From NCBI RefSeq assembly GCF_018350175.1, contig NC_058368.1, forward strand, positions 82,834,001-82,898,000: a stretch of DNA of 64,000 bases, read 5' to 3'. The notes under the pieces were generated by a model. It searched no databases. It saw nothing but the letters and a program-made list of their open reading frames with translations, and had not been told where the DNA came from. Below, in pieces: positions 31,046 to 59,600 of this stretch (its first letter is position 1; each line of letters starts with the position of its first letter). The translations under genes were made by a program, and so were the position numbers. Source of the stretch: Felis catus. Its lineage: Eukaryota.

Positions 31046-31430
31046 AGGGTTTCCTCATTTTGTGTGGATAGTACCATAGTCCCTCCTGGGGTACATTATA
31101 ACATTCTGTTGGGAGCCAAACTCGATATTTGTTATTGTGAAAGAATAAGGAGTCCATGAATTGTTTGTATCTTGTTTCATATTCCATGAGTCCTGGTCTT
31201 AGTTTCACACCTCCATGAATCACACAGGGTGTGTTCTCTGCAAAGGGTATGTTTGAGACAAAGGGCAGCCTCTGTGCAGCTGGCCAACTCTAGCATCAGA
31301 ATGCTGTCAGTAGGGAGTTACTGGGACCCTAACTCTGAACCTGTTCATGACACACAGAGTAAATAGATTCTAGGTTTATACCCTTTGGGGAGAAATTTTG
31401 TATCTATGATGACAACCTGAAGAAAATTTG

Positions 31431-31610
31431 TAACCTCTAACCTTTAGCCTACCCCCTAACCTGAACCCTGAACCTCGAGCCCAAACCCCAATCTGAAACC
31501 CTAGCCCTAAACCTTGAACTGCAAACCCAGATCTCTAACTCCAACCTGAATCTGAACCCTGAACCCAAAACCTGGACCTAAGCCCTGAACCTGGAAACCC
31601 TAACCCCTAG
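31431..31610 (-). repeat. Degenerate telomere-like hexamers (CCCTAA/CCCTGA on plus strand)
   Basis: cccctaacctgaaccctgaacc...aaccctagccctaaacc...aaaccctaacccctag. Confidence 0.7.
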
Positions 31611-32867
31611 CAGTGTTAACAATAGCCAAAATGTAGAAACTATGCAAATGTCCATCAGTGGTGAGTGTATAAACAAAATGTCATTAAGGTTTAGACTTAA
31701 GATTTTATTGTTAGGGCCATGCGTTGGGGTCAGTGGAAGGCTTGAGATCAGGGCCTGTGTTTCATCCCCCTTTTCCATCTCTCTGGCCCTCCAGATTGGA
31801 CAGGACTCACCCAGGATCACACATGCATCAGAGGTTGATCTGAACATCGGTCTTCTGCCCCTTCAGCCCCGGGTACTAAGAGAAGGAGAGTCAAATGTCC
31901 GCTTGGTCCCTGACTATTTCAGATCAAACTCAGACCCAGTCCAGCATTGTGGAGAGCCTCAGAGATTACACAGGATTCTTCCACCCTCTCACCTGGAGAG
32001 GGTGTTGCTAGCCACACTCTGCCTGGGCAGCCCTAGGTTTCAGCACAGCCCTGACCCACAGGGCACTCAATGGACATGTGTCGGTTTACATAGGTCTGAG
32101 TGCAGCATCCTATAAGACCCCATGTGCAGCCCTTCTTGTGGAATGGGAGGGCCCTCCTGGCACTGGCTGTATCCCTGGTCCCATTGGAGCCATCAGCAGT
32201 AGACAGTCAGGTCTCAGACAGGACAGCCCTTGGCCTCTGACCATCCAGGCAGGCATCTGTGGTCCACCAGCTCAGGTCCTAAAACCCCCCATAGCCAATT
32301 ACTGAGCTGACTGTGCTCTTGGCAACTTAACAGGTCTATGGGCAGTGTAGACCAATCCACAGGATGTTTCCATTCCCAACGTCTGTGTGGTTGAGACAAA
32401 TAACTCTTCCCTCCTAGCCTCCTATCCTGCCAAGAGATATAATAACCCTCCAAATGTTGAATGTGGCCTTGGCCACAAGAGCCACACAGCAGACTGGCCC
32501 TGTAGTCCTTGGCCTCTCTGTTGTAATGTAAGTCTTGGACATTTATACTTGTTAAGGATCAAGAATATAGGAGCAACTGTGTTTCCCAGCAGGCAGTTTC
32601 TCACTGAGGCTGCATGGTCTCAGAGAGCCACATGCATGACTCCAGGACCATGGCCACCAGAAAGCCTGCCAAGTGTGGATTCTGTGCTGTGGAATAATCC
32701 TGGAGTCTCCCACTCCTTCACTGAGCACTAATTTCCTTACCTTCCTCACATGTGGTCTCTGCTCTTTGTAAAGGAGAGAGAAGAGACTCGAAGATGGGAC
32801 AATTTGTTCTATGACAATGTGTAATTAATGTGGCCAGGCGCAGGTGTGACTCCTGGTCTCCTTCCGA

Positions 32868-33042
32868 GGGTTAGGCTTAGGGTTAGGGGTTAGGGTTAGG
32901 GTTAGGGGTTATGGTTATGGTAGGGCTAGGGTTAGGGGGTTAGGGTTAGGGTTAGGGTTAGTGTTCCAGTTAGGGTTAGGGTTAGGGTTAGGATTTAGGT
33001 TATCATTAGAATTTGGGTTAGGGTTAGTTTAGGGCTAGGATT
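32868..33042 (+). repeat. Interstitial telomeric sequence, (TTAGGG)n with variants
   Basis: Several runs of perfect TTAGGG plus TTAGGGG, TTATGG, TTAGGA variants. Confidence 0.95.
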
Positions 33043-34342
33043 ACGTCCCAGGTGGCTCCAGGTGCTGGACTCACCATAGGGCACTTGTCTCCCTGAAGGT
33101 CTGAGTGTAGTGGTCAGAGGAGGGTGCCATTTAGGGTTAGTCTTGTTTTGCAAGTCTTGAGACCTCTATGGGCCTATGGTCTGGTAGTCCTCAGGAATTC
33201 TGTTTTATATCTACATTCATGGTTGTGAAATGATATTGTGATGTTTCAGTTTACATGTCACGTATTTATCCACCATTTCTCGACCCCATTTGAGTTGTGT
33301 CAGTCAGTGGAATTGGTTCGCTATGCAGAGAGAGCCTTAGTTACCCTCTGATTTGGGGTCAGGGAAATCTGTAGCGCCGAAGTGGCACCAGTCCTGTGAT
33401 CTCTCTGGATCGATGAATTGAAGGCCCATGCATGTTGGGAGTTAGGTGTATGGTGCGGGTTAACGATGAGGTGAGATTTAGCTTAACGTGTATACCGAAG
33501 GTAACAGTTAAGATTAGGTTTGGTCATAGGAGGCTCTTGGTGCTATACACCCAGTAGGGAAGTTGTTTCCCCGCAGGGCTGATTGGGTGGTCTAAGGAGC
33601 ATCCCAGTGAGGCTGAGTTTTGGGTGCCAGGGTCACTCCTCGGTTAGACCTCAAGAAATCCCCTGTGGATCTCCTTCTGGTCTTTGGAAATGACACCGAG
33701 ATGTTCCAGGTTCCATGGCGAGTAATCTTCCTCTGCTTATGGGCCTCACGTCCATTGTGTCCTCAGACTTAAGAATTGGGTCCCCACTGGGGAAAACTTT
33801 AGCCAAGGTTAAGGTTCGGTCCAGTGGTGTTGCCAGGACCAAAGTGACACCAGTGCCGTGATCACCCTGGAAGGCTGAATGAGGTCCATGATTGTGCGGG
33901 TCATGTGTAGGGTTAGGTTTAGAGTTGGGGTGAGGTTTAGTTTGAGCGGTGTGCTGAGTGTCATGGTTTAGGTTAGGGTTAGGTCCCAGGAAGCTCCAAG
34001 TGCTGAAACTCCAGCAGGGTAGTGGTCTCCTCAGAGGATTGAGTGTAGGCCTCATTTGAGCAAGCTGTTCAGACTTAGTCTTTGCCAAGGCCAGCCTCGT
34101 GTGTGTGTGACATTTTCAGTTGAGCCTCATCAACCCCCTTGTGCAGCTCCATGCGGGCATTGGAAATATCATGATGATGTTCCATGTTCCATGATGAGTA
34201 ATCCTGCACCACTTTGGGCTCTTTGTTCGTGGTGTTTTCAGAGATAGGAATTGGGTCCCCAACCAGAGAGATCCTTAACTAGGGTTAATATTCTGTCCAG
34301 GGACTTCACCAGTGCCAATGTGACACCATTCCTGTGTGTCGT
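33043..34342 (+). repeat. About three highly diverged FA-SAT-like monomers
   Basis: Satellite landmarks (cccagg..gctccagg, cctcaggaat, gatgttccagg, attgggtcccca) recur at ~475-bp spacing (~33050, ~33530, ~33985). Confidence 0.8.
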
Positions 34343-34820
34343 GAGGGTTGTGTTAGGGTTTGGGTTTGGGTTTGATGTTAGGGGTGAGGGTTATGGTTAA
34401 GGTTGTTGTTAGGGGTTAGCGTTAGGGGTTAGAGTTAGGTTTATGCATTAGGGTTGGGTTTAGGGTTAGGGTTACTGTTTAGGGTTATGGTTAGGGGTTA
34501 GGGTTTGGAGTTAGGTTTAAGCATTAGGTTTGGACTTGGGTTAGGCTTAGGTTTAGGGTTAGGGCTTGGGTTTGAGAGTTAGGGTTATGTTAGAGTTAGG
34601 GTTAGGGTTAGGGTTAGGGTTAGGGTTTGCATTAGATTTAGGGTTAAGGTGAGGTCTAGGTCTAGGACATTGTTAGGGGAATGGGTCGGTATTTGGTTTA
34701 GGGGTTAGCGTTAGGGTTAGTGTTAGAGTTTTATGGTTAGGTTTAGGGTTAGTTTTAGGTTTTTTATTTTTAGGGATAGTTGGTTAGGGCCGGGTTAAGG
34801 TTTAGGGTGAGGGTTAGGTT
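34343..34820 (+). repeat. Interstitial telomeric sequence, degenerate (TTAGGG)n
   Basis: ~480 bp of TTAGGG and variants; five perfect copies at 34596-34625. Confidence 0.95.
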
Positions 34821-37800
34821 TTGATCCCAGTTGTGTCCAGGCGCTGAACCCAAAGCTGTGCCTTTGTCTCCCTGAGGTGCTGTCTTGAGGGCCCAAGGGA
34901 GGGTGCCCCTCTGGATAGTATTTGGTTTCCAAGGCCATAGAACTCTATTGGCCAGTGGTCAGGTAGGCCTCAGGAATCGTCTCCGACAGCCTTGTCCATG
35001 CCTTGGAAACAACATGCTGATGTTCCAGGTTCAATGCCGAGTGATCCTGCACCACTTCTGGACCCCAGGCATGTGGTGTTGTCATATATTTTACTGGGTC
35101 CCCATGGGTAGATAGCCTTAGGTAGGTTTATTGTGTGGTCTAGGCACGTTGCCACGGCCTAGGCAACTCCAGTGTCGTGACTTTCCTCATGCGCTGAAGT
35201 GAAGGCCCATGTGAAGGTGCGAAACAAGTGTAGGGTTAGGGTTCGAGATAGGGTTACGTTTCGGTTCAGTGTTCTGCTTAGTGTTAGGTTTAGGTTTTGG
35301 TTTAGGTCCAGGGGGCTCAAGGCACTGAAACCACAGCAGTGCAATTGTCTCCCCAAAGGGCTGCATTTAGGGCCCAATGGAGTGTGATGGTCAGGATTAG
35401 TCTTTGGGTTCCAAGGCCAGACAACTCTATGGCCTATTGGTCGAGTAGGACTCAGGAATTCTCTCAGGTAGCTGTAGCCAGGTTTTGGGAAATAAAATGG
35501 TGTTCTACGTTCTATGCCGTGTGATCCTGCACTGCTTCTGGACTCCAGTTTCGTGGTGTTATTAGACTTTTGCATTGGGTCCCCATAGGTAGAGAGCCTT
35601 AGCTAGGGTTAGGGTTTGTTCCAGGGAAGTCACCAGGGTCCAAGTGACTCCAGTCTCATGATCTCCCTCGAGGGCTGACGTGAGGGCGTATGCCACGGTG
35701 CGTGTTCAGTATACAGTTAGGGTTGGAGATAGGGTTAGGTTTTGGTTGAGGGTTCTGCTTGGGTTAGAGTAGTGTTAGGGTTAGGTCCCAGGAGGCTGTA
35801 GGTGCCGAATCCACAGCAGTGCAGCTTTCTCCCCAAAGGGCTAAGTTGAGTGTACAAGGGTTGTTGCCGGTCAGGATTAGTCTTTGGAATCCAAGGACAG
35901 ACAACTCTTTGGGCCACTGGTCGGGTAGGCCTCAGGAATCGTCTTGGGCAGCTGTAGCCGGGCCTTGGAAACGACATGGTGATGTTCCAGGTTCTATGCT
36001 GAGTGATCCTGCACTGCTTCTGGACCCAAGGCGTGTGGTGTTGTCACATGTGGGTATTGGGTCCCCATGGGGTGAGAGCCATAGCTAGGGTTAGAGTCCG
36101 GTTCAGGGACCTCGAGAGGGCTCAAGGGACTCCAGTCTCGTGATCTCTTTCGAGGGCCAAAGTGAGGGCCCATGCGAAAGTGCAAGTCCAGTGTAGGGTT
36201 AGGGTTCGAGATAAGGTTAGGTTTCGGTTGAGGGTTCTGGTCAGAGTTAGGGTTAGGGTTAGGGTTAGGGTTAGGTTCCATGAGGCACCAGGAGCTGAAC
36301 CCACAGCAGTGCAGTTGTCTCCCCGAAGGGCTGAGTTGAGGGCACAAGGAAGGTTGCCTTTCAGGATTGGTGTTTGTTTTCCAAGGCTAAACATCTCTTT
36401 GGGCCACTGGTCGGGTAGTTCTCATAATCCTCTTGGGAAGCTGCACCCGGGAAAAGACTTCGTGGATATTCCAGCTTGTTTGCTGAGTGATTCTGCACCT
36501 TTTCTAGACCCCTCGTGTGTGGTTTTGGTACACATGGGTATTGTGTACCCATTGGAAGAGATCCTTAGCTAGGGTAAGTGTTCAGTCCAGGGATGTCGCC
36601 AGGCCCAAATCGACTCCAGTCTAGTGATTTCTCTCCAGGACTGAAATAAGGGCCCATGCCAAGGTGTGGGTCAAGTTTAGGGTTAGGGTTTTAGATAGGG
36701 ATATTTTTCAGTTGAGAGTTCTGTTTAGGTTTAGGGTTAGTGTTAGGGTGTGATCCCAGGAGACTCCAGGCACAGAACCCACAGCAGTGCAGTTGTCTCC
36801 CCTAAGGGCTGAGTTGAGAGCACAAGGTGTTTGCTGGTTAGGATTAGTCTTTGTGTTCCAAGGCCAGGCAAGTCTATGGGCTACTCGTCTGGTCAGCCTC
36901 AGGAATCCTCTCGGGCAGCTGCAGCCAGGCCATAGAATTGAAATAGTGATATTCCATGTTCTGTGCTGAGTGTACCTGCACTACTTCTGGACCCCAGGCA
37001 CGTGGTGTTTTCTCACCTTGGTATTGTGTCCCCATGGGGAGAGAGCCCTAGCTTGGGTTAGGGTTCGGTCGAGGGACGTCGCCAGGGCTGAAGCAACTCT
37101 ATTCTCCTGATCTCCCTTGAGGGCTGAAGTGAGGGGCTATGCGAAAGTACTGGTCGAATGTATTGATCGGGTCCGAGATAGGGTAAGGTTTCGATTGAGG
37201 GCTGTGCTTAAGGTTAGGATTAGGGTTATGGTGAGGTCCCAGGATGCTCCAGGCGCTGAACCCACAGCAGTGCAGTTGTTTTACTGAAGGGCTCATTTGA
37301 GGGCACAATTGAGGGTGCCGGTCAGGGTTAGTCTTTGTGTTCTATGGCCAGACAACTCTATGGGCTACTGGTCTGGTAGGCCTCAGGAATTCTCTTGGGC
37401 AGCTGGAGCCGGGCCTTGGAAACAACATAGTGATGTTCCAGGTTCTATTCCAAGTGATCCTGCACCGGTTCTGGATCCTGAGGCATGTGGTGTTGTCAGA
37501 CCTTGGTATTGGGTCCCCATGGGGAGAGGGCCTTAGCTAGGGTTAGGGTTCAGTTCCGGGACGTCGCCAGGGAAGATACGACTCCAGTCTCATGACCTCC
37601 CTTGAGGGCTGAAGTGAGGTCCATGTGATGGTGCGGGTCAAGTGTTGGGTTAGGGTTCTAGATAGGGTTAGGTTTCGGTTGAGGGTTCTGTTTAGGGTTA
37701 GTGTTAGGTCCCAGGAGGCTCCAGGCACTGAACCCACAGCAGTGCAGTGGTCTCCCGGAAGGGCTGAGTTGAGGGCACAAGGGGCGGTGCCGGTCACGAT

Positions 37801-40800
37801 TAGTCTTTGGGTCCCAAGGCCAGAGAACTCTATGGGCCAGTGGTTGGGTAGGCCTCAGGAATCGTCTTGGGCAGCTGCAGCTGGGCCTTGGAAATGACAT
37901 GGTGATGTTCCACGTTCTATGCCGAGTGATCATGCACCTTTTCTAGACCCCAGTTTGTGGTGTTGTCATATACTGTTATTGGGTCCCCATGGGTAGACAG
38001 CCTTATCTAGGGTTAGAGTTCGGTCCAGGGACATCACTAGGGCCTAGGCGACTCCAGTCTTGTGACCTTCCTCGAGGGCTGAAGTGAAGGCCCATGCGAT
38101 GGTGCAAAACAAGTGTAGGGTTTGGGTCGAGATAGTGTTGGGTTTTTTTGAGGGTTCTGCTTAGGGTTAGGGTTAGGGTTAGGTCCCAGAAGACTCCAGG
38201 TGCTGAACCCACAGCAGTGCAGGTGTCTCCCTGATGGGCTGACTTGCAGTCACAAGGGACGGTGCTTATCAGGATTAGTGTTTTTGTTCCAAGGCCAGAC
38301 AACTCTATGGGCCACTGTTCGGGTAGGCCTCAGGAATCCTCTTGGGCAGCTGTAGCTGGGCCTGGGAAATGACATGGTGATGTTCCAGGTTCTATGCTGA
38401 GTGATCCTGCACTGCCTCTGGATCCCAGGTGCGTGGTGTTGTCAGACTTTGGTATTGGGTCCCTATGGGGAGAGAGCCTTAGCTACGGTTAGGGTTTGGT
38501 CCAGGGATGTTGCCAGGGCCAAAGAGATTCCAGTTTTGTGGTCTCCCTTGAGGGCTTGAGTGAGGGCCCATGCGACGGTTCATGTCACGTATAGGATTAG
38601 GGTTTGAGATAGGGTTAGGTTTTGGTTGAGGGTTCTGGTTAGGGTTAGGGTTCTGTTTCTGGTTAGGTTAGGGTTTGAGTTAGGACCGAGGTGGTCCAGG
38701 TGCTGAACCCACAGCAGTGCAGTTGTGTCCCTGAAAGGCTGAGATGAGGGCACAAGGGGCGGTGCCGGTCACGATTAGTCTTTGGGTTCCAAGGCCAGAA
38801 ACCTCTATCGGCCAGTGGTCGGGTAGGCCTCAGGAATCGTCTTGGGCAGCTGTAGTGGGGCCTTCGAAACTGCATGGTGATGTTCCAGGTTCTATGCTGA
38901 GTGATCCTGCACTGCCTCTGGATCCCAGGTGCGTGGTGTTTCAGACTTTGGTATTGGGTCCCTATGGGGAGAGAGTCTTAGCTACAGTTAAGGTTAGGGC
39001 CAAGGACAATGCCAGGGCTGATGCGACTCCAGTCTATTCATATCTATTGAGGGCTGAAGTGAGGGCCCATGGTACAGTGCAGGTCAAGTGTGGGGTTAGG
39101 GTTCTAGTTAGGGATTGGTTTCAGTTGAGGTTTCTGGTTTGGTTTAGAGTTAAGGTCAGGGTTAGGGTTAGTGTTAGGGTTAGGTCCCAGGAGGGTCTAG
39201 GCGCTGACCCCACAACAGTTTTGATATCTCCCGGAAGGGCTCATTTGAGGGCACAAGCAAGGGTGCCAGTCAGGATTAGTCTTTGGGTTCCAAGGCCAGA
39301 CAACTCTATGGGCCACTGTTCAGGTAGGCGCAGGAATCATCTCGGGCAGCTGTAGCTGGGCCTGGGAAATGACATGGTGATGTTCCAGGTAATATGCCAG
39401 GTGATCCTGCACTGCTTCTGGACCAAAGGTGTTTGGTTTTGTCAGACTTTGGTATTGGGTCCCCATTGGAAGAGAGCATTAGCTAAAGTTAGGGTTAGGT
39501 CCAGGGCGTCACCAGGGCCAATGCGACTCCAGTCTCATGATCTCCCTCGAGGGCTGACATGAGGGTCATGTGATGGTGCGGGTCAGTGTAGGGTTTTGGT
39601 TGGAGATAGGGTTAAGATTCAGTTGAGGGTTATGGTGAAGGTTATTGTTAGGGACAGGGTTAGGTCCCAGGAGGTTCCAGGTGGTGTACCCACAGCTGTG
39701 CAGTTGTGTGCCTGAAGGTTTGAGTTGAGGGCACAAGGAAGGGTGCCAGTCAGGATTAGTTTTGGGTTCAAAGTCCCTCAACTCTCTGGGCCACTGGTCA
39801 GGTAGGCCTCAGGAATCCTTTGGGCAGCTGCAGCCGGGTTGGGAAACGACATGCTGATGTTCTAGGTTCAATGCCAGGTGATCCTGCACCGCTTCTGGAC
39901 CCCAGGCACGTGGTGTAGTCAGACTTTGGTATTGGGTCCCCATGGGGAGAGAGCCTTAGCTAGGGTTAGTGTTCAGTCCAGGGATGTCGCCAAGGCCAAA
40001 GCGACTCCAGTCTTGTGATCTCCCTCAACAGCTGAAGTGAAGGCCATGCGATGGTGCAGGTCAAGTGTAGGGTTAGTGTTCGAGATAGTGTTAGGTTTTG
40101 GTTGAGGGTTCTCAGGGTTATGTTTAGGATTAGGGTTAGGACCCAGGAGGTCCAGGCGGTCAACCCACAGCAGTGCAGTTGTCTCCCCAAAGGCCTGTGT
40201 TGAGGGCACAAGGGAGTCTGCCTTTTTGGATTAGTCTTTGTGTTCCAAGGCCACACAACCCTATGGGCCACTCTTCGCGTAGGCCTCATGTATCCTCTCG
40301 GGCAGCTGCAGCCGGACCTGGGAAATGACGTGGTGATGTTCCAGGTCTATGCTGATTGATCCTGTACTTCTTTTGGACTCCAGGTGCATGCTGTTCCAGG
40401 TTATGCCGAGTGATCATCCACCGCTTCTCGACCCCAGGCACCTGGTGATGTCAGACGTTGGTACTGGGTCCCCAAGGGGAGAGAGACTTAGATATGGTTG
40501 CAGTTCGGTCCAGGGACATCGCCAGGGCCAACGTGAGTCCAGTCTCATGATCTCCTTTGAGGGCTGAAGTGAGGGTTATGCAACAGTGTGTGTCATGTAA
40601 GTTTTTGGCTCGCTATAGGGTTAGGGTCCGGTTGAGGGTTCTCGTGAGTGTAGGGTTAGGGTTAGGGTTAGGGCCCAGGATACTCCAGGTGCTGAGCCCA
40701 CAGCAGTGCAGTTGTGTCCCCGAAGTGCTGAGTTGAGGGCACAAGTAGGGGTGCCGGTCAGGATTAGTATTTGGGTTCCAAGGCCAGTCAACTCTATGGG

Positions 40801-43800
40801 CCACTGGTCAGTAGGCCTCCGGGATCCTCTCGTGCAGCTGCAGCCTGGTCTTGGAAATGACATGGTGATGTTCCAGGTTGTATGCCAGGTGATCCTGCAC
40901 CTCTTCTGGACCCCAGGTGTGTTGTTGTCAGACTTTGTTATTGTTTCCCGTGGAGAGAGACTTAGCTATGTTTAGGGTTCGGTTCCAGGATGTCACCAGG
41001 GTGGAAGTGACTCCAGTCTCATGATCTCCCTCGAGGGCTGAAGGGAGGGCCCATGTGATGGTGCGGGTCAATTGTAGGTTAGGGTTAGAGATAGGGTTAG
41101 GTTTCGGTTGAGGGTTGTTGTTAGCGTTAAGTTTAGGGTTAGGATTAGGTCCCAGGAGGCTCCAGGCACTGAACCCACAGCAGTGCAGTTGTGTCCCCGA
41201 AGGGCTGAGTTGTGGGCACATGGGAGCATGCCAGTCAGGATTAGTCTAGGGTTCCAAGGCCAGACAACTCTATCGGTCACTGGTTGTGTAAGCCTCAGGA
41301 ATCCTCACGGGCAGCTGCAATCGGGCCTTCTAAATGACATGGTGATGTTCCAGGTTCTATACCGAGCAAACCTGCACCGCTTCTGGACAACAGGCGCGTG
41401 GTGTTGTCAGACTCTGGTATTGGGTCCCCATGGGGAGAGAGCCTTATGTAGGGTTAAGGTTAGGTCCAGGGACGTCGTCAGGGCTGAAGCAGCTCCAGCC
41501 TCCTGATCTCCCTCATGGGGTGAAGTGAGGACCCAAGGGACGTTGCGTGTCAAGTGTAGGGTTAGGGTTCAAGATAGGGTTACGTTTCGGTTGAGGGTTC
41601 TGGTTAGGGTTAGGTTTAGTGTTACTGTTAGGTCCCAGGATGCTCCAGGCACTGATCCCACAGCAGTGCAGTTGTGTCCCTGAAGGGAAGAGTGCAGGAC
41701 ACATGGGAGATGCCAGTCAGGATATGTCTTTGGGTTCCAAGGCCAGACAAGTCTATGGGCCACTGGTCGTGTATGCCTCAGGAATCCTCATGGGCAGCTG
41801 CAGCTGGGCCTTGGAAACGACATGGTGGTGTTCCAGGTTCTATGCCTAGTGATCCTGTACCGCTTGTGGACCCCAGGCGCATGGTCTATTCACAATTTAG
41901 TATTTGGTCCCCAAGGGGAGAGAGCCTTAGCTAGGATTATGGTTTGGTCCAGGGACGTCGCCAGGGCCAAAGCGACTCCAGTCTCATGATTTCTCTCGAA
42001 GCCTGAAGTGAGGGCCCATGGTACGGGGTGGCGTTAGGTTTCAGTTGAGGTTTCGGGTTAAGGTCAGGGTTAGGGTTATGTCCCAGGAGTCTCCAAGCGC
42101 TGAACCCATAGCAGTGCCGTTGTCTCCCAAAAGGGCTGAGTTGAGGGCACAAGGGAGGATGCTGGTCAGGATTAGTCTTTGGGATACAAGGCCAGACAAC
42201 TCATTGGGCCACTGGTCGCATAGACCTCAGGCATTCTCTTGGGCAGCGGCAGCTGGGCCTTGGAAATGACATGTTGTTGATCCAGGTTCTATGCCGTGTG
42301 ATCCTTCACCACGTCTGTTACTCAGGTGTGTGTTGTCAGACTTTTACATTGGGTTCCCTTGGGGAGAGAGCCTTATCTAAGCTTAGTGTTTGGGCCAGGG
42401 ACATCGCCAGGGCCGACGCCACTACAGGCTCGGATCTCCCTAAAGGCATGAAGTAAGGTCCCAGAAGGCAGTGCTGGTCATGTTTATGGTTAGGGTTTGA
42501 GATAGGGTTAGGTTTCAGTTGAGGGTTCTGGTTCAGGTTAGGTTTAGTGTTAGGGTTAGGTGCAGGAGTCTTGATGCTCTGAACCCACAGCAGTGCAGTT
42601 GTGTCCCTGAAGGTCTGAGTTTAGGGCACAAGGGAGGGTGCTGGTCAGGATTAGTCTTTGTGTTCCAAGGTCATTCTATTCTATGGGTCACTGGTCGGGT
42701 AGGCCTCTGGAATCCTCTCAGGCAGCTGCAGCCAGGCATGGGAAACAACCTGGTTATGTTCCAGCTTCTATGCCGAGTGATCCTGTACCGCTTCTGGACC
42801 CCAGGCGCGTGGTGTCAGACTCTGGTATTGGGTCCCCATGGGGAAAGAGACTTAGGGAGGGTTAAGGTTAGGTCCAGGGACGTCTCCAGGGCCAAAGCAA
42901 CTCCAGCCTCATGATCTCCCTCAAGGGGTGAAGTGAGGGCCCAAGTGATGGTGTGGGTCAAATGTAGGGTTAGGAATCAAGATAGGGTTACGTTTCGGTT
43001 CAGGATTCTGGTTAGGGTTAGGTTTAGTGTTAGTGTTAGGTCCCAGGAAGCTCCAGGCACTGAACCCACAACAGTGCAGTTGTCTCCCCTAAGGGCTGAG
43101 TTGAGGGCACAAGGGAGGGTGCCGGTCAGATTAGTCTTGGGTTCCAAGGCCAGACAACTCTATGGGCCACTGGTCGGCTATCCCTCAGGAATCCTCTCAG
43201 ACAGCTGCAGCTGGGCCTGGGTAACAACCTGGTGATGTTCCAGCTTCTATGCCTAGTGATCTTGCACTGCTTCTGGACCCCAGGCGCATGGTGTAGAAGA
43301 CTTTCGTATTGGGTCCCCATGGGGAGAGAGCCTTAGCTATGGATAGGGATCGGTCCAGGGACATCGCCAGGGCTGAAGTGACTCCTGTCTCGTGATCTCC
43401 CTAGAGGGCTGAAATTAGGGCCATGCCATGTTTCAGTTCAAGTTTAGGGTTTTGGTTCAAGATAGGGTTAGGTTTCGGTTGAGGGTTATGCTGAGATTTA
43501 GGGTTAGGGTCAGGATTAGGTCCCAGGAGACTCCAGGCACTGATTCCACTGCAATGCAGTTGTCTCCCCGAAGGGCTGAGTTGAGGGCACAAGCGCAGGT
43601 ACCGGTCATGATTAGTCTTTGGGTCCATGACCAGACAACCCTATGGGCCACTGGTCATGTACGTCTCAGGTATCCTCTCGGGCAGGTTCTGCCCATCCTT
43701 GGCAACAAACAGTGATGTACCAGGTTCCATGCTGAGTGATTCTACACCGCTTCTGGACCCCAGGCACGTGGTGTAGTCAGACTTTGGTTTTGGGTCCCCA

Positions 43801-44581
43801 AGTGAGAGATCTTTAGCTACGGTTATCTTTCTCTCCAGGGATGTCGCCAGGGCCAAAGTGACTCCAGTCTTGTGATCTCTCTTGAGGGCTGAAGTGAGGG
43901 CCCACGCGATGGCGTAGGGTCAATGTAGCGTTAGGGATCGAAATAGGGTTAGGTTTCGGTTGACGGTTCTCGTTAGGGTTTTGTTTAGTGTTAGGGTTAG
44001 GTACCAGGATGCTTCAGGCAGTGAAACCACAGCAGTCCAGTTGTCTCCCCGAAGGTCTCAGTTGGGGGCACAAGGGTGGTGTTGGTCAGGGTTAGTCTTT
44101 GGGTTCCATGGCCAGAAGCTCTATGGGCCACTGGACGGGTATGCCTCAGAAATCATCTCGGGCAGCTGCAGCCGGGCCTTGGAAACAACATGGTGATGTT
44201 CCAGGTAATATGCCAGGTGATCCTGCACCACTTATGAACCCCAGGCGCGTGGTGTCAGACCTTTGTGTTGGGTCCCCATGGGGAGAGACCCTTAGCTATG
44301 GTTAGGGTTGTGTCCAGGGACATTGTCAGGGCTGACACGACTCCAGTGTCCTGATGTCCCTTGAGGGCTGAAGTGAGGGCCCATGTTACGGCGCGGGTCC
44401 AGTGTAGTGTTAGGGTCGAGACAGGGTTATGTTTTGGTTGAGGGTTCTGGTTAGGGTTAAAGTTAGGGTGAGCGTCAGCGTTAGGTCCCAGGAGGCTCCA
44501 GGCATTGAATCCACAGCAGTGTATTTGTTTCCCCGAAGGTCTGAGTTGAGGGCACAAGGGAGGGTGCTGGTCAGTAGTCTT
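34821..44581 (+). repeat. FA-SAT satellite array, ~21 head-to-tail monomers
   Basis: Anchor ccacagcagtgcagttgtc occurs 20 times from ~35331 to ~44511, mean spacing ~483 bp (the known FA-SAT monomer length), plus one at ~34850; each monomer contains TTAGGG hexamers. Confidence 0.93.
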
Positions 44582-51966: not shown

Positions 51967-53879
51967 ATCAGGTGATTTTTTTTAAAAAATTGAGAGTGCA
52001 GGAGAAACATAAGGGCCTAGAAGCTAGAGCATCTTCTGTTGGCTTTCCCAGGAAACTTTACCTGAGCCAGCAGCCAAGTGCCTTTTAGAGGCCAGCCAGG
52101 GTCACTTATCAGAGTTGGGACACATTGGTAAGACAGTATGCAGTGAATGAGCAGGATCCCTGCACAGAGACATCTTATGAGTGCCATCAAACGGAGTGCC
52201 AGATGACAGAAGAGGAGATTCTGACAACAGGTTCTAAAGTGGGGGTACATCCAGAGAACAGCTGGAGATGTGTCTGAGGTGCCCCAGCTAAAGTCAAAGG
52301 ATGCTTGCGTCCAGCTCCTATGCATTCCTTCCCTCAGTAAACATGAAGTGTCTTGTACTCACCAGAGCCCCATGGAGAGGCACTTAGGGTAGTCAGACTC
52401 CTAAAAGAAGCAGGTGTCTAAATAGGTAATTCTATGGGGAGAGTTTTAAACTGGTGTCCTGGAAACACAGGATGGAGCCTCTGATCCCAGAAAAGTTGGG
52501 AAAAGCTGCAAAGCTTCTGACTGGGTGTCAGAGAGGGTGTTCTGTTCAAAGAGACCAGCATGTTGATGGGACAAGGAGGTAAGAAGAACCAACAAGGTGA
52601 GAGAATGGCAGGAGAGTCATGTGGGAGGCAGGTGTTTGTGGGGGAAGCATAGGAGATGGGAATATGGAGCTGGACATAGAGGGAAGGAAGGGCTACTCTC
52701 CAACCTTGGTCCCACCTCGTTTTTAAGGACTTCTGTCTCCTTACCATAGAACAAAGGTCTGGAGGAGAATGCTTCAAAAGTCCCCCCAGTTCTAAAATCT
52801 TGAGTAATCTTTGACCAACGCAGTCTGAATGAAATTTTCATTGTTTGAAGAACTAGACCAGTAGCACCCTTGAGTAGAGCTGGAAAGTACACTATGAAGG
52901 AGTAAAACCCCAGCAGGGTTATTATGTGCGTGAGCCCTGCCGCTGGGGGCTCCCACCCACCTGGGTCTGCATCATGGTTCACCTGATGCCTGGGACGTGC
53001 ATTCAGGGAGAGAGCTGCTGTGCTGAGTGCTGGGGGAGGGCAAGAAGGGATTGAAAAAACACATAGAATTGAAGAAACCAGATTACTTTGGATAATAGAA
53101 AAGGCATGAACTTCCTCCCTTCATCCCTGCAAAGCTTCCAAAACCTGGTCAGCAATGAAAGGGAACATCTAGAGCACAATTACCCTTTAGTGCTTCAAAG
53201 AACAGCTTTTCTTACTATACTCTTCTTTTTCCCCTTCCTCTCTTTCCTTGTTCTATAAGCTCATTTTCTTGACCCCTTGTCAGTTTCTCTCTTAAAATAA
53301 GTTCTCTCACCAATATTTCAATGAGGAATGAATCTGATGATTGATACAGAAGCTGGTAGTCAGTCTCCCACATTTTGACTTGCTCTGCCCATGCTTGGTA
53401 CTTACTTGGTCTCTGTTAGTCTAAGGTGCAATATCAGATGAGGTGCCTCAATATCATTCATATCTAGCTAGGAGAAGAATAATTCCATGTGATGGTGGAA
53501 CCAACACTGTGGCCTGTCCCAAGGAAGAGACCCCTATCTCAGATTTCTTGTGCATTTTTCAAAACCAGGGAGCCCATCTCTTGGGAGTGAGTGGAAGCAC
53601 TGTTTGAAAAACGCTATAAATCCTGTATATAAACCCTTCCGCACAGTGAGCCTCTCTGTGCTCAGATACTTACAATTCAGCCCACGGTTGAATGTAAGAT
53701 TACCATTGAGTTCATCCCAGGGAAATTAGTCTTAAGAGCCGAAAGAGTTCCCTTTGTGATTCCAGCATCTCGGTGCAGAGATGTCAGGCCCTTGCACAGT
53801 GGGATTCTTTGATATCCCAAGACAGCAGCCCCCTCGGCCTCTTCCCCGTCGGCGGCCCACAGCAATCCTCTGGGAACAA

Positions 53880-55547
53880 GGCCGAAGGGACTCCGGTCTC
53901 GTGATTTCCCTCGAGGGCTGAAGTTAGGGCCCATGCGACGGGGCGGCTCAAGTGGAGCTTTAGGTTTCGAGGCCGGCTTAGTTTTCAGTGGAGGGATCTG
54001 GTTCGGGGTAAGGTTAGGGTTAGGGTTAGGTCCAAGGAGGCTCCAGGGGCCGAACCCACAGCAGGGCAATGGTCTCCCCAAAGGGCTTAGTTGAGGACAC
54101 AATGGAGGGTGCCGCTCATGATCAGACTATGGCTGCCAAGGACACATAATTCGATGGGCCGGGCAGCTACAGCCCGGCCTGTGCAACGACATGCTGAGCT
54201 TCCTGGTTCCATGGCTAGTGAGCTTACACTGCTTCTGGACCCCAGGTGCGTGGTGTTGTCAGGCTTTGAGATTGGGTCTCTATGGGGAGGGAGGCTAGCT
54301 AGGGTAAGGGTTCAGTCCAGGGACATCACCAGGGCCGAAGCGACTCCAGTCTCGTGATCTGGGGTCGAGGGCTCAAGTGAGGGCTTATGCGACGGGGCGG
54401 CTCAAGTAGAGGGTTTGGGCTCGAGGCCGGCTGAGGTTTCAGTGGAGGGTTCCGGCATGGGGTAAAGATAGGGTTATGGTTAGGTCCCAGGAGGCTCCAG
54501 GCGCCGAACCCCAAAGCAGGGCAGTGGTCCCCCGAAGGGCTGAGGTGAGGGCACAAGGGAGGGTACCTCTCAGGATCAGTCTTTGGCTGCCACGGCCACA
54601 CACGTCGATTGGCCCCTGGTTGAGGAGGCCTCAGGAATCCTCTCGGGTAGCTGCAGCCCGGCCTGGGAAACGACGTGTTGCGCTCCAGGTCCCATGCCGA
54701 GTGAGCCTGCTCTGCTTGTGGACCCCAAGCGCGTCGTGTAGTCCGATTTTCTTATAGGGGCCCCATGGGGAGAGCGCCTTAGCTAGGGTTAGGGTTCGGT
54801 CCAGAGACGTCGCCAGGGATGAAGCGACTCCGGTCTCGTGATCTACCTCAAGGGGTGAAGTGAGGGCTCATGCGACAGGGCGTCTCAAGTGTACGTGGTG
54901 GAATCGAGGCCGGCTTAGGTTTCGGTGGAGGGTCCCGGTTTGATGTTGGGTTAGGGTTAGAGTTAGGACCCAGGAGGCTCCAGGCGCCGAACCCACAGCA
55001 GGGCAGTGGTCTGCCCGAAGGGCTGAGTTGAGGGCACAAGGGAAGCTGCCGGTCAGGATCAGTCTTTTGCTGCCAAGGACACACACGTCGAAGGAACCCT
55101 GTCCGGGAGGCCTCAAGAATCCTCTCGGGCAGTTGCAGCCGTGCCTCGGAAACCACATGCTCAGCTTCCAGGTTCCATGCCGAGTGAGCCTGCACCGCTT
55201 GTGAAGCCCAGGGGTGTGGCGTTGTCAGGTTTAGGGATTGGGTCCCTTGGGGAGAGTGCCTTAGCTAGGGGTAGGTTTCGGTTCAGGGACGTAGCCAGAA
55301 CCGAAGCGACTCCGGCCTTGCGATCTACCACGAGGGCTGAAATGAGGGCTCATGCGACGGGGCGGCTCAAGTGTAGGGTTAGGGTTCGAGACCGGCTTAG
55401 GTTTCGGTGGAGGGGACGGTTCCTGGCGGGCGGTTAGGGTTAGGGTTAGGTCCCGGGAGGCTACAGGCTATGAACCCACAGCAGGGCAGTGGTCTCCGCG
55501 AAGGGCTGAGTTGAGGGCACAAAGGAGGGTGCCGATCAGGGGTCTTT
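53880..55547 (+). repeat. Second FA-SAT array (~3.5 monomers), CpG-rich variant
   Basis: Anchor ccacagcagggcagtggtc at ~54056, 54511, 54993, 55476 (spacing ~455, 482, 483). Confidence 0.93.
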
Positions 55548-56610: not shown

Positions 56611-59600
56611 AGAGGGGGGGTGCCAGCAAGATGGCAGAGGAGTACCCTAAACTCACCCTGTCTCATGTTTACAACTAGATATCACTCACATCCAAATCAA
56701 CAAACTGGAGAGTGATATGAAGACTGGCAGAACAGACCACAACTAAATATAGGGAAGAAGTTGTATGGAAAAGTTAGGAAGGACAGAAAAGGTGCTTGCT
56801 TGGAAGTGGCCCCCAGAAGGGATAGACGAAAGGGGAAAGTACCAGGGAGCCCACATACGGAAAATGAATTCTTATAATTCCTGGCCTTGAAAACCAGAAG
56901 GGCTGAGCTCCATGAGTTTGTATAACTGGTGGATCTTGCAGCCTGGAGCTTTAACAACCAACTCAGCCTTGGGAAAGCTGGCAGGGCAAGTGATAACAGG
57001 GTCCCTACCCTTAAAGAGTACAAGTAGATGCAACAGAGAAGCCACACTTTGTACAATGGGGGGGGGGGGGAAGATATTTATACTGAATTTGGGGCATGTT
57101 GGGGTAATTCTCTGAGAACAAAGGATCTGTTCCATTTTCTTCCCTTGTCCCCCAGCATAAACACAGAACCACTTTCAGAGGCAAGATTGCACTGACACTT
57201 GCTACATAGCTTTCTTGCAGTGTGCCCCACCCAGGAGTTCTCCTAAAGACCACCCACAACAAGACTACTGACCTCTGCCCAGGACTCAGCAAAAATTTTG
57301 TTATTGCTGCCCATGACAACCAAGCTGCTGCCTCTGTGGATTGCAACCCCATGACCATTGTGTTTCTGGGGATCCTGCTTAGGACTTCTGGGTTGGTGCC
57401 AATTTTGCTAATGCTGTGTGCACATCACTCACCTGCCATCTGTCCCACCAGCCATTCTCCTTGCCCAGCTGCTGCACACACAGACACAAGTCACCATGCC
57501 AAGCCACCAGGCACACAGATGCTCTGCTCAATAACCATATGCACAGACACCATGTGCCCCTGGCCACCATACTACTGGGAATCAACCTAGGACTAGTGGC
57601 TTTGCAAATCTTACTAATGGTGCATGTGTGCCCTGTCTAGCTGGCTAGTGCACAGAAGCCAACAACCCCTAGCCCTTGATTGTGATGCACACAGAGCCCC
57701 AGGCCACCACCATATTTCAGGAGAGCCAGCCCAGGACTAGCGGCTCAAGGCAAAGTTTGGTAATGCTGTGCATATACCCTGTTCAGCCTCTCCCCACAAT
57801 GTTTCACACCCCCTACCACCACCACTACCCTTTTGTTTGGCCACCCAGCTGTGGGGGATTCAGTTTAGGATTAACATCACAGTGCAAATTTTACTAACAG
57901 CATCTTCTGCAGTCATACTCCTTCAGAATTGCTCTGCCTGGATCTCATTAAGATCACAGAGAGCAAGCACAGACCACAGCAGGCAAAGACTCTGTTGCAG
58001 ATGTCTGCACTGAATAAAAGATACAATAGCGAAAAATAAGAAACACACATAGGAGTCTCCCCTGAAGTGTCAGATTCTAATGAACACAGGACAATGCACT
58101 ACAGAACACTACAGGACCTCCTCTTCATAAAAAATACTTTCAAAAGCAGATAATGCAGCTAATTTTCCTAGTACACAGAAATACACACACAGAGGTAGAC
58201 AAAAGGAAGGGACAGAGAAATATGTCCCAAATAAAAGAACAGCACAAAATCACAGTAGGAGATCTGAAATGAAAAAAATAAATAAGTAATATAACTGATA
58301 CAGAATTTAAAGTAACAATTATAAAACATATTCATATGACTTCAGAAAATGATGGAAATAGCAGTAAGAACTTTGACAAAGAGTTAAAAAAATAAAAATC
58401 TGAGATGAAGAGCTCAATAAATGATATTAAAAGTACAACAGATTGAATAAATAGTAGGATATAGGAAGCAGAGGAATATATCAAGGGCCTGAAGAATAGA
58501 GTAATGGAAAACAAACTGAATAGGTGAGAGAAAGACAAATAGTGCATAATGAGATTAACCTCAGAGAAATCAGTGACTTGATCAAGCGTAATAATATTTT
58601 CATTATAAGGATTCAAGAAGGAAGAGAGAGACAAAATGTGTGTGTGTTGGGGGTGGGGGACAAAAGGGGGAAGACAGAAAATGTATTTGAAGAAATAATG
58701 GCTGAAAACGTCCTGAATGTGGGGAAGGAAATAGATATCCAGATATAAGAGGTACAGAGATCCTCTAACAAATTCAATCCAATGAGGTCCACACCAAGAC
58801 ACATAGCAATTAAAATGGCAAAAAAAGTAATAAAAAATGTTAAAGGTTGAAAGAGAAAATAAGAAAATTACATAGAAAGGATACCTCATAAGGCTATCAG
58901 TTGATTTTTCAGCAGAAACTTTTAGAGTCAGAAGGGAGTGGCATGGTGTATTCAAAGGTATAAAAGGGAAAAATCTCCATCCAAAAAGAATATACACAGC
59001 AAGGCTATATTTAATAATAGAAGGAAAGATAAAGAATTTATTTGACAAACAATTTAAAACAATTCATGACCATTAAACTAACCCTATAAGAAATGTTAAT
59101 GAGGAATCTGTGAGTGGAAAAAAATAACTAAGAATAAGAAAAATAGGAAAGACAAAATAAAAAGATATAAAAGATGACACGAAATATCTGAAACATGGAA
59201 GAGAGAAGAGTAAAGAATGAGCTCAAAAATAAGGGACCATCAGCTTCATATAGACTACTCTATGCAGAAGATGTTATATATAAACTGAATGGTAATTATA
59301 AACCAAAAAATAGTAATAGATATGGAAAACAAAGAGCGTGTAATCCAAGTATATCATGGAAGAAAATAGGCAAACCATGAAAGAGAGAAAAAGAAGAAAG
59401 TTTCAGAGAAAAACAAAATAAATAAAACCTTACAAAACATTGCAGTGAATACATATCTATCAATAATTGCTTTAAATGCAAATGAACAAAATAGTCAAAA
59501 GAAATAGGTAATAAAGTGGATAAAAATAGAATACTCATCTATACACTACCTATAAGAGATTCATTTAAGACCTAAAGACAACTACAGATTGAGAGTGAGG

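Follow-up and report, generated by a model that had tools for sequence, protein, structure and literature searches.

The stretch of cat (Felis catus) DNA analysed here, referred to as the window, is 64,000 nucleotides long and holds the gene CHAMP1, degenerate telomere-like tracts and arrays of the satellite FA-SAT. A coding exon of CHAMP1 (823 aa, reverse strand, 11666..14137) shows 72-88% identity to named mammalian CHAMP1 relatives, and the tract locus is placed beside it on cat chromosome A1 at about 83.28 Mb, at the end of the HSA13-like arm. Human CHAMP1, which serves as a context gene here, lies at 13q34 inside the terminal 13q33.3q34 loss. When 266 open frames were compared with Pfam, no second protein-coding gene by which to orient the locus was found, only an L1 domain scoring above the cut-off, and no relatives were found for the open frame at 429-761.

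Two degenerate TTAGGG tracts lie on the forward strand: T1 (32871..33045) spans 175 bp and 29 units and is 87% identical to pure repeat, and T2 (34348..34824) spans 477 bp and about 79 units and is 80% identical. The original prediction had both right in existence, place and length, and it had also called them near-pure telomeric repeat, which at these identities they are not. Of exact TTAGGG units T1 has 14, covering 48% of its length with at most 3 in a row, and T2 has 26, covering 33% with at most 5 in a row; T1 is the purer (p=0.04). Short interstitial telomeric sequences are defined by at least four units with fewer than one mismatch for each unit (PMC7215372); T1, with 21 mismatches in 29 units, is within this limit, and T2, with 80 in about 79, is borderline. 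In both tracts degenerate units are intermixed with other repeats, as in subtelomeric telomeric-like sequence, and at A1 83.28 Mb no true telomere is next to them. A third degenerate tract, T0 (31440..31611, reverse strand), had been overlooked; it is inverted relative to T1 and T2, abounds in TTCAGG-type variants and has 72% identity to pure repeat. The window contains no head-to-head TTAGGG/CCCTAA array, its sole CCCTAA-rich bin (31401-31600) being to the left of the TTAGGG tracts, and a telomere-telomere fusion signature was rejected as not present within the window. A possible inverted monomer relic at about 31830-31940, in one of four windows examined, was not accepted either, its score lying at the 97th percentile of 736 control windows.

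The tandem array beside the tracts has a period of 483 bp and a consensus of 484 bp, the monomer length of FA-SAT. Homology to FA-SAT was judged by published primers and probes and by published X06372 matches. Seven of the eight primers and probes fit the consensus with 1-5 mismatches (0/200 shuffles as good) and one does not fit; 19 monomer spacings agree with published X06372 matches on cat A1 (r=0.999, within 2 bp), among which the array of the window is found at 70-87% identity. Period, primer sites and spacings together uphold the predicted identity as FA-SAT. The consensus has 59% G+C vs 64% for FA-SAT. Changes in these copies are mainly C-to-T and G-to-A/T, and the lower value is consistent with decay. 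Its final 76 bp are 88% TTAGGG; the accessible text of PMC5714208 likewise describes telomeric motifs inside the FA-SAT monomer and an origin thought to be in telomeric regions. The segment occupied by the tracts, the slot, had been described in ordinary monomers as about 120 bp of degenerate GT-rich sequence. This is incomplete, since the slot measures 78-131 bp in 25 monomers and consists, in the consensus, of a 37-bp non-telomeric spacer followed by the 76 bp of mostly TTAGGG.

T2 divides two layers of monomers, all on the forward strand. To its left are three edge monomers, namely 33046..33523 (70% identity to the array consensus, ordinary slot), 33524..33983 (460 bp, 74%, ordinary slot) and 33984..34347, which is truncated at about consensus position 371, with homology clear to about 357 and an AGGG end. 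To its right, at 34825..44581, are 20 full monomers with 82-91% identity to the consensus and a 96-bp partial unit. A second array (53877..55540, forward strand), comprising three full monomers and partial ends, is a separate subfamily. The view that the edge monomers form an older layer was strengthened: they are the most diverged and form one side of a 100/99 branch, in a tree that is unrooted and in which the branches of the trio are long. They have 11 three-way shared states vs 3.9 expected (p=0.0005), four of which are C-to-T changes also common in young monomers.

As predicted, both tracts stop at the next monomer landmark, at 33046 and 34825, which is to be expected because the hexamer run of every FA-SAT monomer ends there. 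The companion claim, that both begin after the same landmark, is solid for T2 and weak for T1. The consensus and monomer 33984 are colinear, with the anchored fit peaking at position 371 (score 51, vs at most 45 elsewhere). The left landmark of T1 (32830..32870, forward strand) is a weak 41-bp match to monomer positions 326-371, whose final AGGG is in register with the tract. By free fit it gives p=0.07 (2000 shuffles) and p=0.06 (1936 real flank windows); with the end fixed at position 371 it is reached by 0/400 shuffles, and a profile of all 26 monomers did not detect it. It scores 25 against the younger consensus vs 18 against the old-layer majority. Both left junctions finish in AGGG in register, a motif also present there in the ordinary monomer, the non-telomeric part of which has 10 AGGG ends.

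The polarity of the change can be read from the spacer. T1 and T2 are without it, and it is part of an internal duplication in every monomer: spacer positions 372-408 match positions 56-92 at 27 of 37 bases (0/5000 shuffles reach that), so the spacer was there before the monomer underwent its internal duplication. The reference monomer also carries the duplication, visible as second matches at query 189-275, and monomers 33046 and 33524 retain the spacer at 28/37 and 30/37 bases. The tract-bearing unit is not supported as FA-SAT's ancestral form, since the spacer predates the duplication and these two equally old monomers keep an ordinary slot. On sequence comparison, the duplication points to a putative shorter ancestral satellite unit, for which loci on A1 (85-89 Mb) and B2 (30.5 Mb), whose matches cover query 2-110 alone, are candidates. 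The accessible text of PMC5714208 describes neither this duplication of about 90 bp nor the junction of the truncated unit with T2.

The right junction of T1 is single copy; the left junction of T2 is multicopy. In run X15 a 299-bp contig has a depth of 283.5 vs 11 and 17.1 for exact-match contigs (17-26x single-copy), and it aligns across the monomer-T2 junction (34134-34419) with 30 differences and no gap, the paralog comparison covering the first 72 bp of T2 only. A further paralog spans this junction in X1 and X15. Among raw reads at 34351, 43/45 and 36/37 are unlike the window, and single-copy bins hold 0.8-2.1 reads. In a published cat BLAST table, 12 of the 16 rows starting at query 228 are partial units, 69-74% identical, like monomer 33984. 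Nine of these 12 truncated array ends are near a chromosome end, with the G-rich strand facing that end in 9/9, and three are interstitial (A1, B4, X). The unit adjoining the truncated one measures 458-463 bp at 9 of 11 tabulated loci (window counterpart 33524, 460 bp), the tabulation leaving out B3 183 kb, E2 52 kb and E2 61.88 Mb for misfit of spacing, and the unit at the position of T1 is of ordinary length (453-485 bp) in 5/5 informative paralogs. In the B3 paralogs the array halts at the partial unit, with no match for the following 12 and 16 kb. Some of the related ends whose start is at query 243, 248 or 43 face away from the chromosome end closer to them (B4 65 kb, B3 11 kb, E2). The common start at 228 could partly be an effect of where BLAST stops on old copies; among the first five places listed for each start there is no spike at query 204-209.

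Counted from the junction, variant units 6, 8 and 11 also recur in both T1 and T2 (p 0.001-0.012 at the best of 51 offsets), in a test that was post hoc and had one unit merged by hand, and as a sign of kinship this is suggestive only. Similarity was not significant in whole-tract tests (p 0.12-0.76) or in a base-level anchored test (p=0.11), and the higher purity of T1, the inner tract, misfits simple age layering. Because the T2 junction is multicopy and the tracts share variant units, a single ancestral event is the best account of the phase that they have in common, and the fixed phase is taken to be mostly one event copied.

The tracts are best read as telomeric repeats that were added as a derived feature and now lie within an old FA-SAT array of subtelomere type, a reading to which we give a probability of roughly 0.6. 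Its first part, that the tracts are derived and that one junction was copied, is very probable, and the mechanism, telomere addition and capture, is favoured with more reserve. A break near position 371 in the final monomer of an old array would have laid bare AGGG, and TTAGGG would have been added there in register, as by telomerase at healed ends or at short interstitial telomeric sites; in-register microhomology with flanking deletion is typical of telomeric insertions (PMC2246262). The paralogs show that the truncated end was copied, together with its tract, to many sites, the majority of them close to chromosome ends. At this locus a tract may then have found a pairing partner in the TTAGGG run within some other array's monomer and copied onward from it, and this would explain why the next monomer always starts right after the tract. 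T2 followed by the younger array would be the outcome, T1 followed by the old trio would probably come from a second copy of the same junction, and the tracts would finally have decayed. Pairing of terminal with internal repeats and subsequent copying has been demonstrated for yeast Y' in the accessible text of PMC4222662. There is no sign of a present function of the tracts.

It is possible, though rather improbable, that the tracts expanded in place: one monomer would have lost its spacer by deletion between G-rich repeats and lengthened its own TTAGGG run through slippage or unequal exchange, with neither a chromosome end nor telomerase, the variant being duplicated later. The hexamer run does end at the same landmark in every monomer, the slot varies in length, and telomeric arrays generated in situ by satellites are described for Arabidopsis in the accessible text of 10.64898/2026.05.10.723265. 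However, the 477 bp of T2 stand against 131 bp in the largest ordinary slot, and the B3 paralog arrays end at the junction and do not run on. Moreover, no slot-specific variant pattern survived in T1 or T2 (p 0.46-1.0), and higher-order block structure, apparent by eye in T2, was significant in neither tract. A slot-tract similarity by unit shuffle (p 0.00-0.002) was discarded, as the null broke the 6-bp period and the similarity vanished with a proper null.

The original prediction had also proposed that chromosome ends were repeatedly healed with TTAGGG at this monomer position. Telomere-type addition stands as the likeliest origin of the junction, with AGGG in register; that T1 and T2 were separate breaks, each healed by telomerase at one favoured position, is improbable. 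AGGG in register at both junctions, the greater purity of T1 and the closer likeness of its landmark to the younger consensus would suit separate events, but the T2 junction is a copied family, the three index-matched variants are common to both tracts, and use of the same one of 10 AGGG ends twice requires a preference. Still less credible, and largely refuted, is the relic first proposed, in which tract-bearing units preserve an ancestral monomer of subtelomeric DNA plus a telomere tract from position 371. The units beside the tracts are indeed the most diverged and make up an older layer, and FA-SAT is thought to derive from telomeric regions; against this, the spacer belongs to the internal duplication in every monomer, including the reference, the slot is ordinary in two of the three old monomers, and paralogous old arrays keep ordinary unit lengths except at the truncated end. 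An assembly artefact has a negligible chance: a low-complexity repeat does adjoin satellite and no single contig covers the whole stretch, but exact-match contigs span the T1 right and T2 left junctions in two runs of different studies (0-1 differences in public contigs at the junction of the T1 tail with the first monomer, 0 at monomer/T2), the T2 region between flanking matches is the same 630 bp in the published cat assembly, with which the 19 monomer spacings also agree, and 20 runs from 9 studies, all of one organism only, contain 75-81% of the sampled words of the window.

Telomeric addition and capture can be carried one step further. Since its position is next to CHAMP1, where the HSA13-like arm ends, the locus may be a fossil chromosome end, which would call for an inversion, given the direction in which CHAMP1 runs. 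More tentatively, it might hold successive fossil ends, FA-SAT having spread in the manner of Y' with telomeres capturing arrays through the TTAGGG run of the monomer, and the locus being the buried former end of an ancestral HSA13-like chromosome, fixed in place when that chromosome's union with the HSA5-like arm gave rise to felid A1. If so, the truncated junction would be a datable marker of old ends, and the interstitial copies on B4 and X would be other former ends or moved subtelomeres. A telomeric origin of FA-SAT is already published, in PMC5714208, and the headline idea is not new. What is added is a specific, countable marker, one truncated, TTAGGG-capped array end common to roughly a dozen cat loci or more. 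Should the capture model prove right, subtelomere growth driven by recombination would have a germ-line example among mammals, and former chromosome ends, the A1 arm junction included, could be located and dated in the evolution of carnivore karyotypes.

Among known systems, FA-SAT itself (X06372; PMC5714208, as far as its accessible text goes) agrees in the 483-bp period, the primer sites, the telomeric motifs in the monomer and the arrays at chromosome ends, but the copies here are old and decayed, and 477 bp of TTAGGG cap one unit, which is truncated. Both short and subtelomeric interstitial telomeric sequences (PMC2246262, PMC7215372) share degenerate TTAGGG off the chromosome tip, in-register AGGG, loss of flanking bases and mixed repeats; in contrast, the junction here is multicopy and lies within a satellite with a TTAGGG run of its own, and the right side joins via repeat homology and is not the other side of a simple break. 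The human fusion-type array at 2q13 (PMC7215372) likewise has telomeric repeats near an ancestral chromosome boundary, whereas here a CCCTAA tract is found 1.26 kb leftward of the TTAGGG tracts, which is the opposite arrangement and not head-to-head. Yeast Y' elements with internal TG1-3 tracts (accessible text of PMC4222662) have no homology to FA-SAT, a short non-coding unit, and their capture is established by experiment, while here it is read from fossils; in both, however, an internal telomeric tract precedes a subtelomeric unit, and in yeast the pairing of telomeric repeats moves such units between chromosome ends.

The tandem array in the window has a period of 483 bp (consensus monomer, 484 bp) and is FA-SAT. 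Seven of eight published FA-SAT primers and probes fit the consensus better than any of 200 shuffles, and 19 consecutive monomer lengths agree within 2 bp (r = 0.999) with the published spacing of hits of the reference monomer X06372 on cat A1, so the window lies at about A1 83.25-83.31 Mb. The data used are the window, public sequencing runs and the table of cat-genome BLAST hits from which this spacing comes (PMC5714208, Table S2; all figures from it rest on 10 of its 51 parts). A second, short array (53877-55540), 9.3 kb from the first, belongs to a separate, more CpG-rich subfamily, 81-87% identical to the reference monomer in the table. On the right, the two arrays stop (44581 and 55540) at almost the same phase, consensus about 90-108, where the first duplicated segment of the monomer also ends. 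The monomer starting at 40141 is 532 bp long with an internal duplication of ~60 bp (40334-40395), and those at 41633 and 54031 carry deletions of ~30-35 bp. The only gene found in the window is CHAMP1 (11666-14137, minus strand). It has a G+C-rich island (22001-23000) and, immediately upstream of the island, a TA-rich microsatellite of 345 bp (23525-23869). Among 266 other open frames compared with Pfam, only an L1 ORF1 domain (58876-59073, Tnp_22_dsRBD, E 1.7e-11) was above the cut-off, in an A-rich L1-like stretch reaching the right end of the window.

Many TAACCC-like hexamers were reportedly counted in the monomer by Fanning in 1987. According to the available text of the papers, the monomer holds telomeric motifs likely reflecting a telomeric origin (PMC5714208), tracts of degenerate telomeric sequence among other repeats form a recognised class (PMC7215372), and 47 TTAGGG repeats lie at the B2p end, with no link drawn to FA-SAT (PMC2453318). 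A TTAGGG-capped FA-SAT end is not described in the literature searched, which took in few subscription papers (neither Fanning 1987 nor Pontius and O'Brien 2009) and not the figure supplements of PMC5714208.

Two TTAGGG tracts are present in the array as first described, T1 (32871-33045) and T2 (34348-34824), but they are degenerate and not near-pure: T1 has 14 exact units and 87% identity to the pure repeat, T2 26 and 80%. That they fill the same monomer slot holds for the right ends, both at a normal monomer start, and for the well-defined left end of T2 (consensus ~371); the left landmark of T1 is weak, a 41-bp match missed by the monomer profile search (p = 0.06-0.07 unanchored; anchored, 0 of 400 shuffles reach its score). 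The ordinary slot (78-131 bp in 25 monomers) consists of a 37-bp spacer followed by about 76 bp of hexamer repeat, so a right end at a monomer start is expected of any tract joining a monomer. Exact-match contigs from two studies span the right junction of T1 and the left junction of T2, which rules out an assembly artefact there. A third, degenerate telomere-like tract with TTCAGG-type variants (31440-31611) lies 1.26 kb left of T1 in the opposite orientation; beside it, near 31830-31940 on the minus strand, a weak monomer-like match was not accepted.

The edge monomers are indeed an older layer. Identity to the consensus is 70-74% for these three, which start at 33046, 33524 and 33984, and 82-91% for the 20 monomers following T2; an unrooted tree (26 rows) sets the three apart by a branch of support 100/99. 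They have 11 non-consensus states in common (3.9 expected, p = 0.0005), four of them common C-to-T changes; states shared by two or more rows show no excess (41 against 37.6). At 80% likeness, the body of monomer 33046 has single-copy depth in public runs.

The tract-bearing units are, even so, not a relic of the satellite's origin. Monomer positions 317-405 are a copy of 1-88, with a score of 64 where 2000 shuffles reach at most 34; this duplication is also visible in the table as second hits at query 189-275. Of the 37 bases of the spacer, which both tracts lack, 27 agree with positions 56-92. The spacer is thus part of the internal duplication and predates the present form of the monomer; it is kept in monomers 33046 and 33524, which are as old as 33984, and T1 and T2 are judged to be derived. 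The duplication of ~90 bp suggests an older, shorter FA-SAT unit. Each copy (consensus 1-88 and 317-405; for example in 39185-39664) comes after a telomere-like patch. The table also has clusters of hits that cover no more than about query 2-110, with identities of 70-80% (A1 85.2-89.3 Mb, B2 11.55 and 30.5 Mb, A2 60.35 Mb, B1 358-360 kb, B4 142.4 Mb); they may come from a related short-unit repeat, and several lie just beyond the window locus on A1.

The fixed phase of the tracts is mostly that of one copied junction. Query 228 is the start of at least 16 table rows. Twelve of these resemble the hit on 33984, the monomer truncated at T2, in being partial units of 69-74% identity; the other four are three young copies and one internal deletion. 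Among the rows listed, three of the 12 are interstitial (A1, B4 81.6 Mb, X 111 Mb), and the other nine are close to a chromosome end and have their G-rich strand directed to it. Across 11 loci, counting two B4 rows whose start is query 243 but not the B1 and X rows, the unit next to the truncated one measures 458-463 bp in nine, is sum-consistent in one and unseen in one. On B3 the table has no further array past the truncated unit for 12 and 16 kb; the unit at T1's place is of ordinary length in all five informative paralogs. The spacing does not fit at three further candidate loci, and some of the related ends face inward. In the public run X15, one 299-bp contig, whose depth is 17-26 times that of exact-match contigs (a rough measure of copy number), aligns over the left junction of T2 and reaches 72 bp into the tract, ungapped and with 30 differences; reads and table agree on a multicopy T2 junction. 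T1 and T2 have variant units 6, 8 and 11, counted from the junction, in common (post hoc test; p 0.001-0.012, the best of 51 offsets), but tests of their kinship at base level were not significant.

In the available text of the papers, cat A1p is the HSA13 homologue, A1 being 13/5 (PMC7230465); CHAMP1 is within terminal 13q (PMC12295095); and both proposed ancestral carnivore karyotypes keep A1p and A1q separate, one model joining A1p to C1q (PMC3238119, PMC4731086). That the locus is a buried former chromosome end is a rather doubtful reading, which fits this separation, the place of CHAMP1 and the array, which points to higher A1 coordinates. No head-to-head telomeric array occurs in the 64-kb window. 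Window CHAMP1 points away from the array and human CHAMP1 is transcribed toward the telomere, so a fossil end would need a local inversion.

The original prediction of repeated TTAGGG healing at this phase keeps its telomere addition, the repeated events being recast as one old event followed by subtelomeric duplication. Most likely, an old array broke after AGGG and telomeric repeats were added in register. Copies of the capped end then spread between subtelomeres, as the table records, and at the window locus a tract may have paired with another array at its hexamer run, copying continuing onward. Such pairing and copying would explain why a monomer starts exactly where each tract stops. T1, although the inner tract, is purer than T2 (p = 0.04), which counts against simple layering. 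The main rival is deletion plus expansion of the hexamer run in place; neither T1 nor T2 retains any of the variant pattern of the ordinary slot. At primate and rodent telomeric insertions the commonest flank change is deletion, and about three quarters have in-register bases (PMC2246262, available text). The proposed capture of a further array by a tract has its likeness in yeast, whose telomeres gain Y' elements by pairing and copying (PMC4222662, available text).
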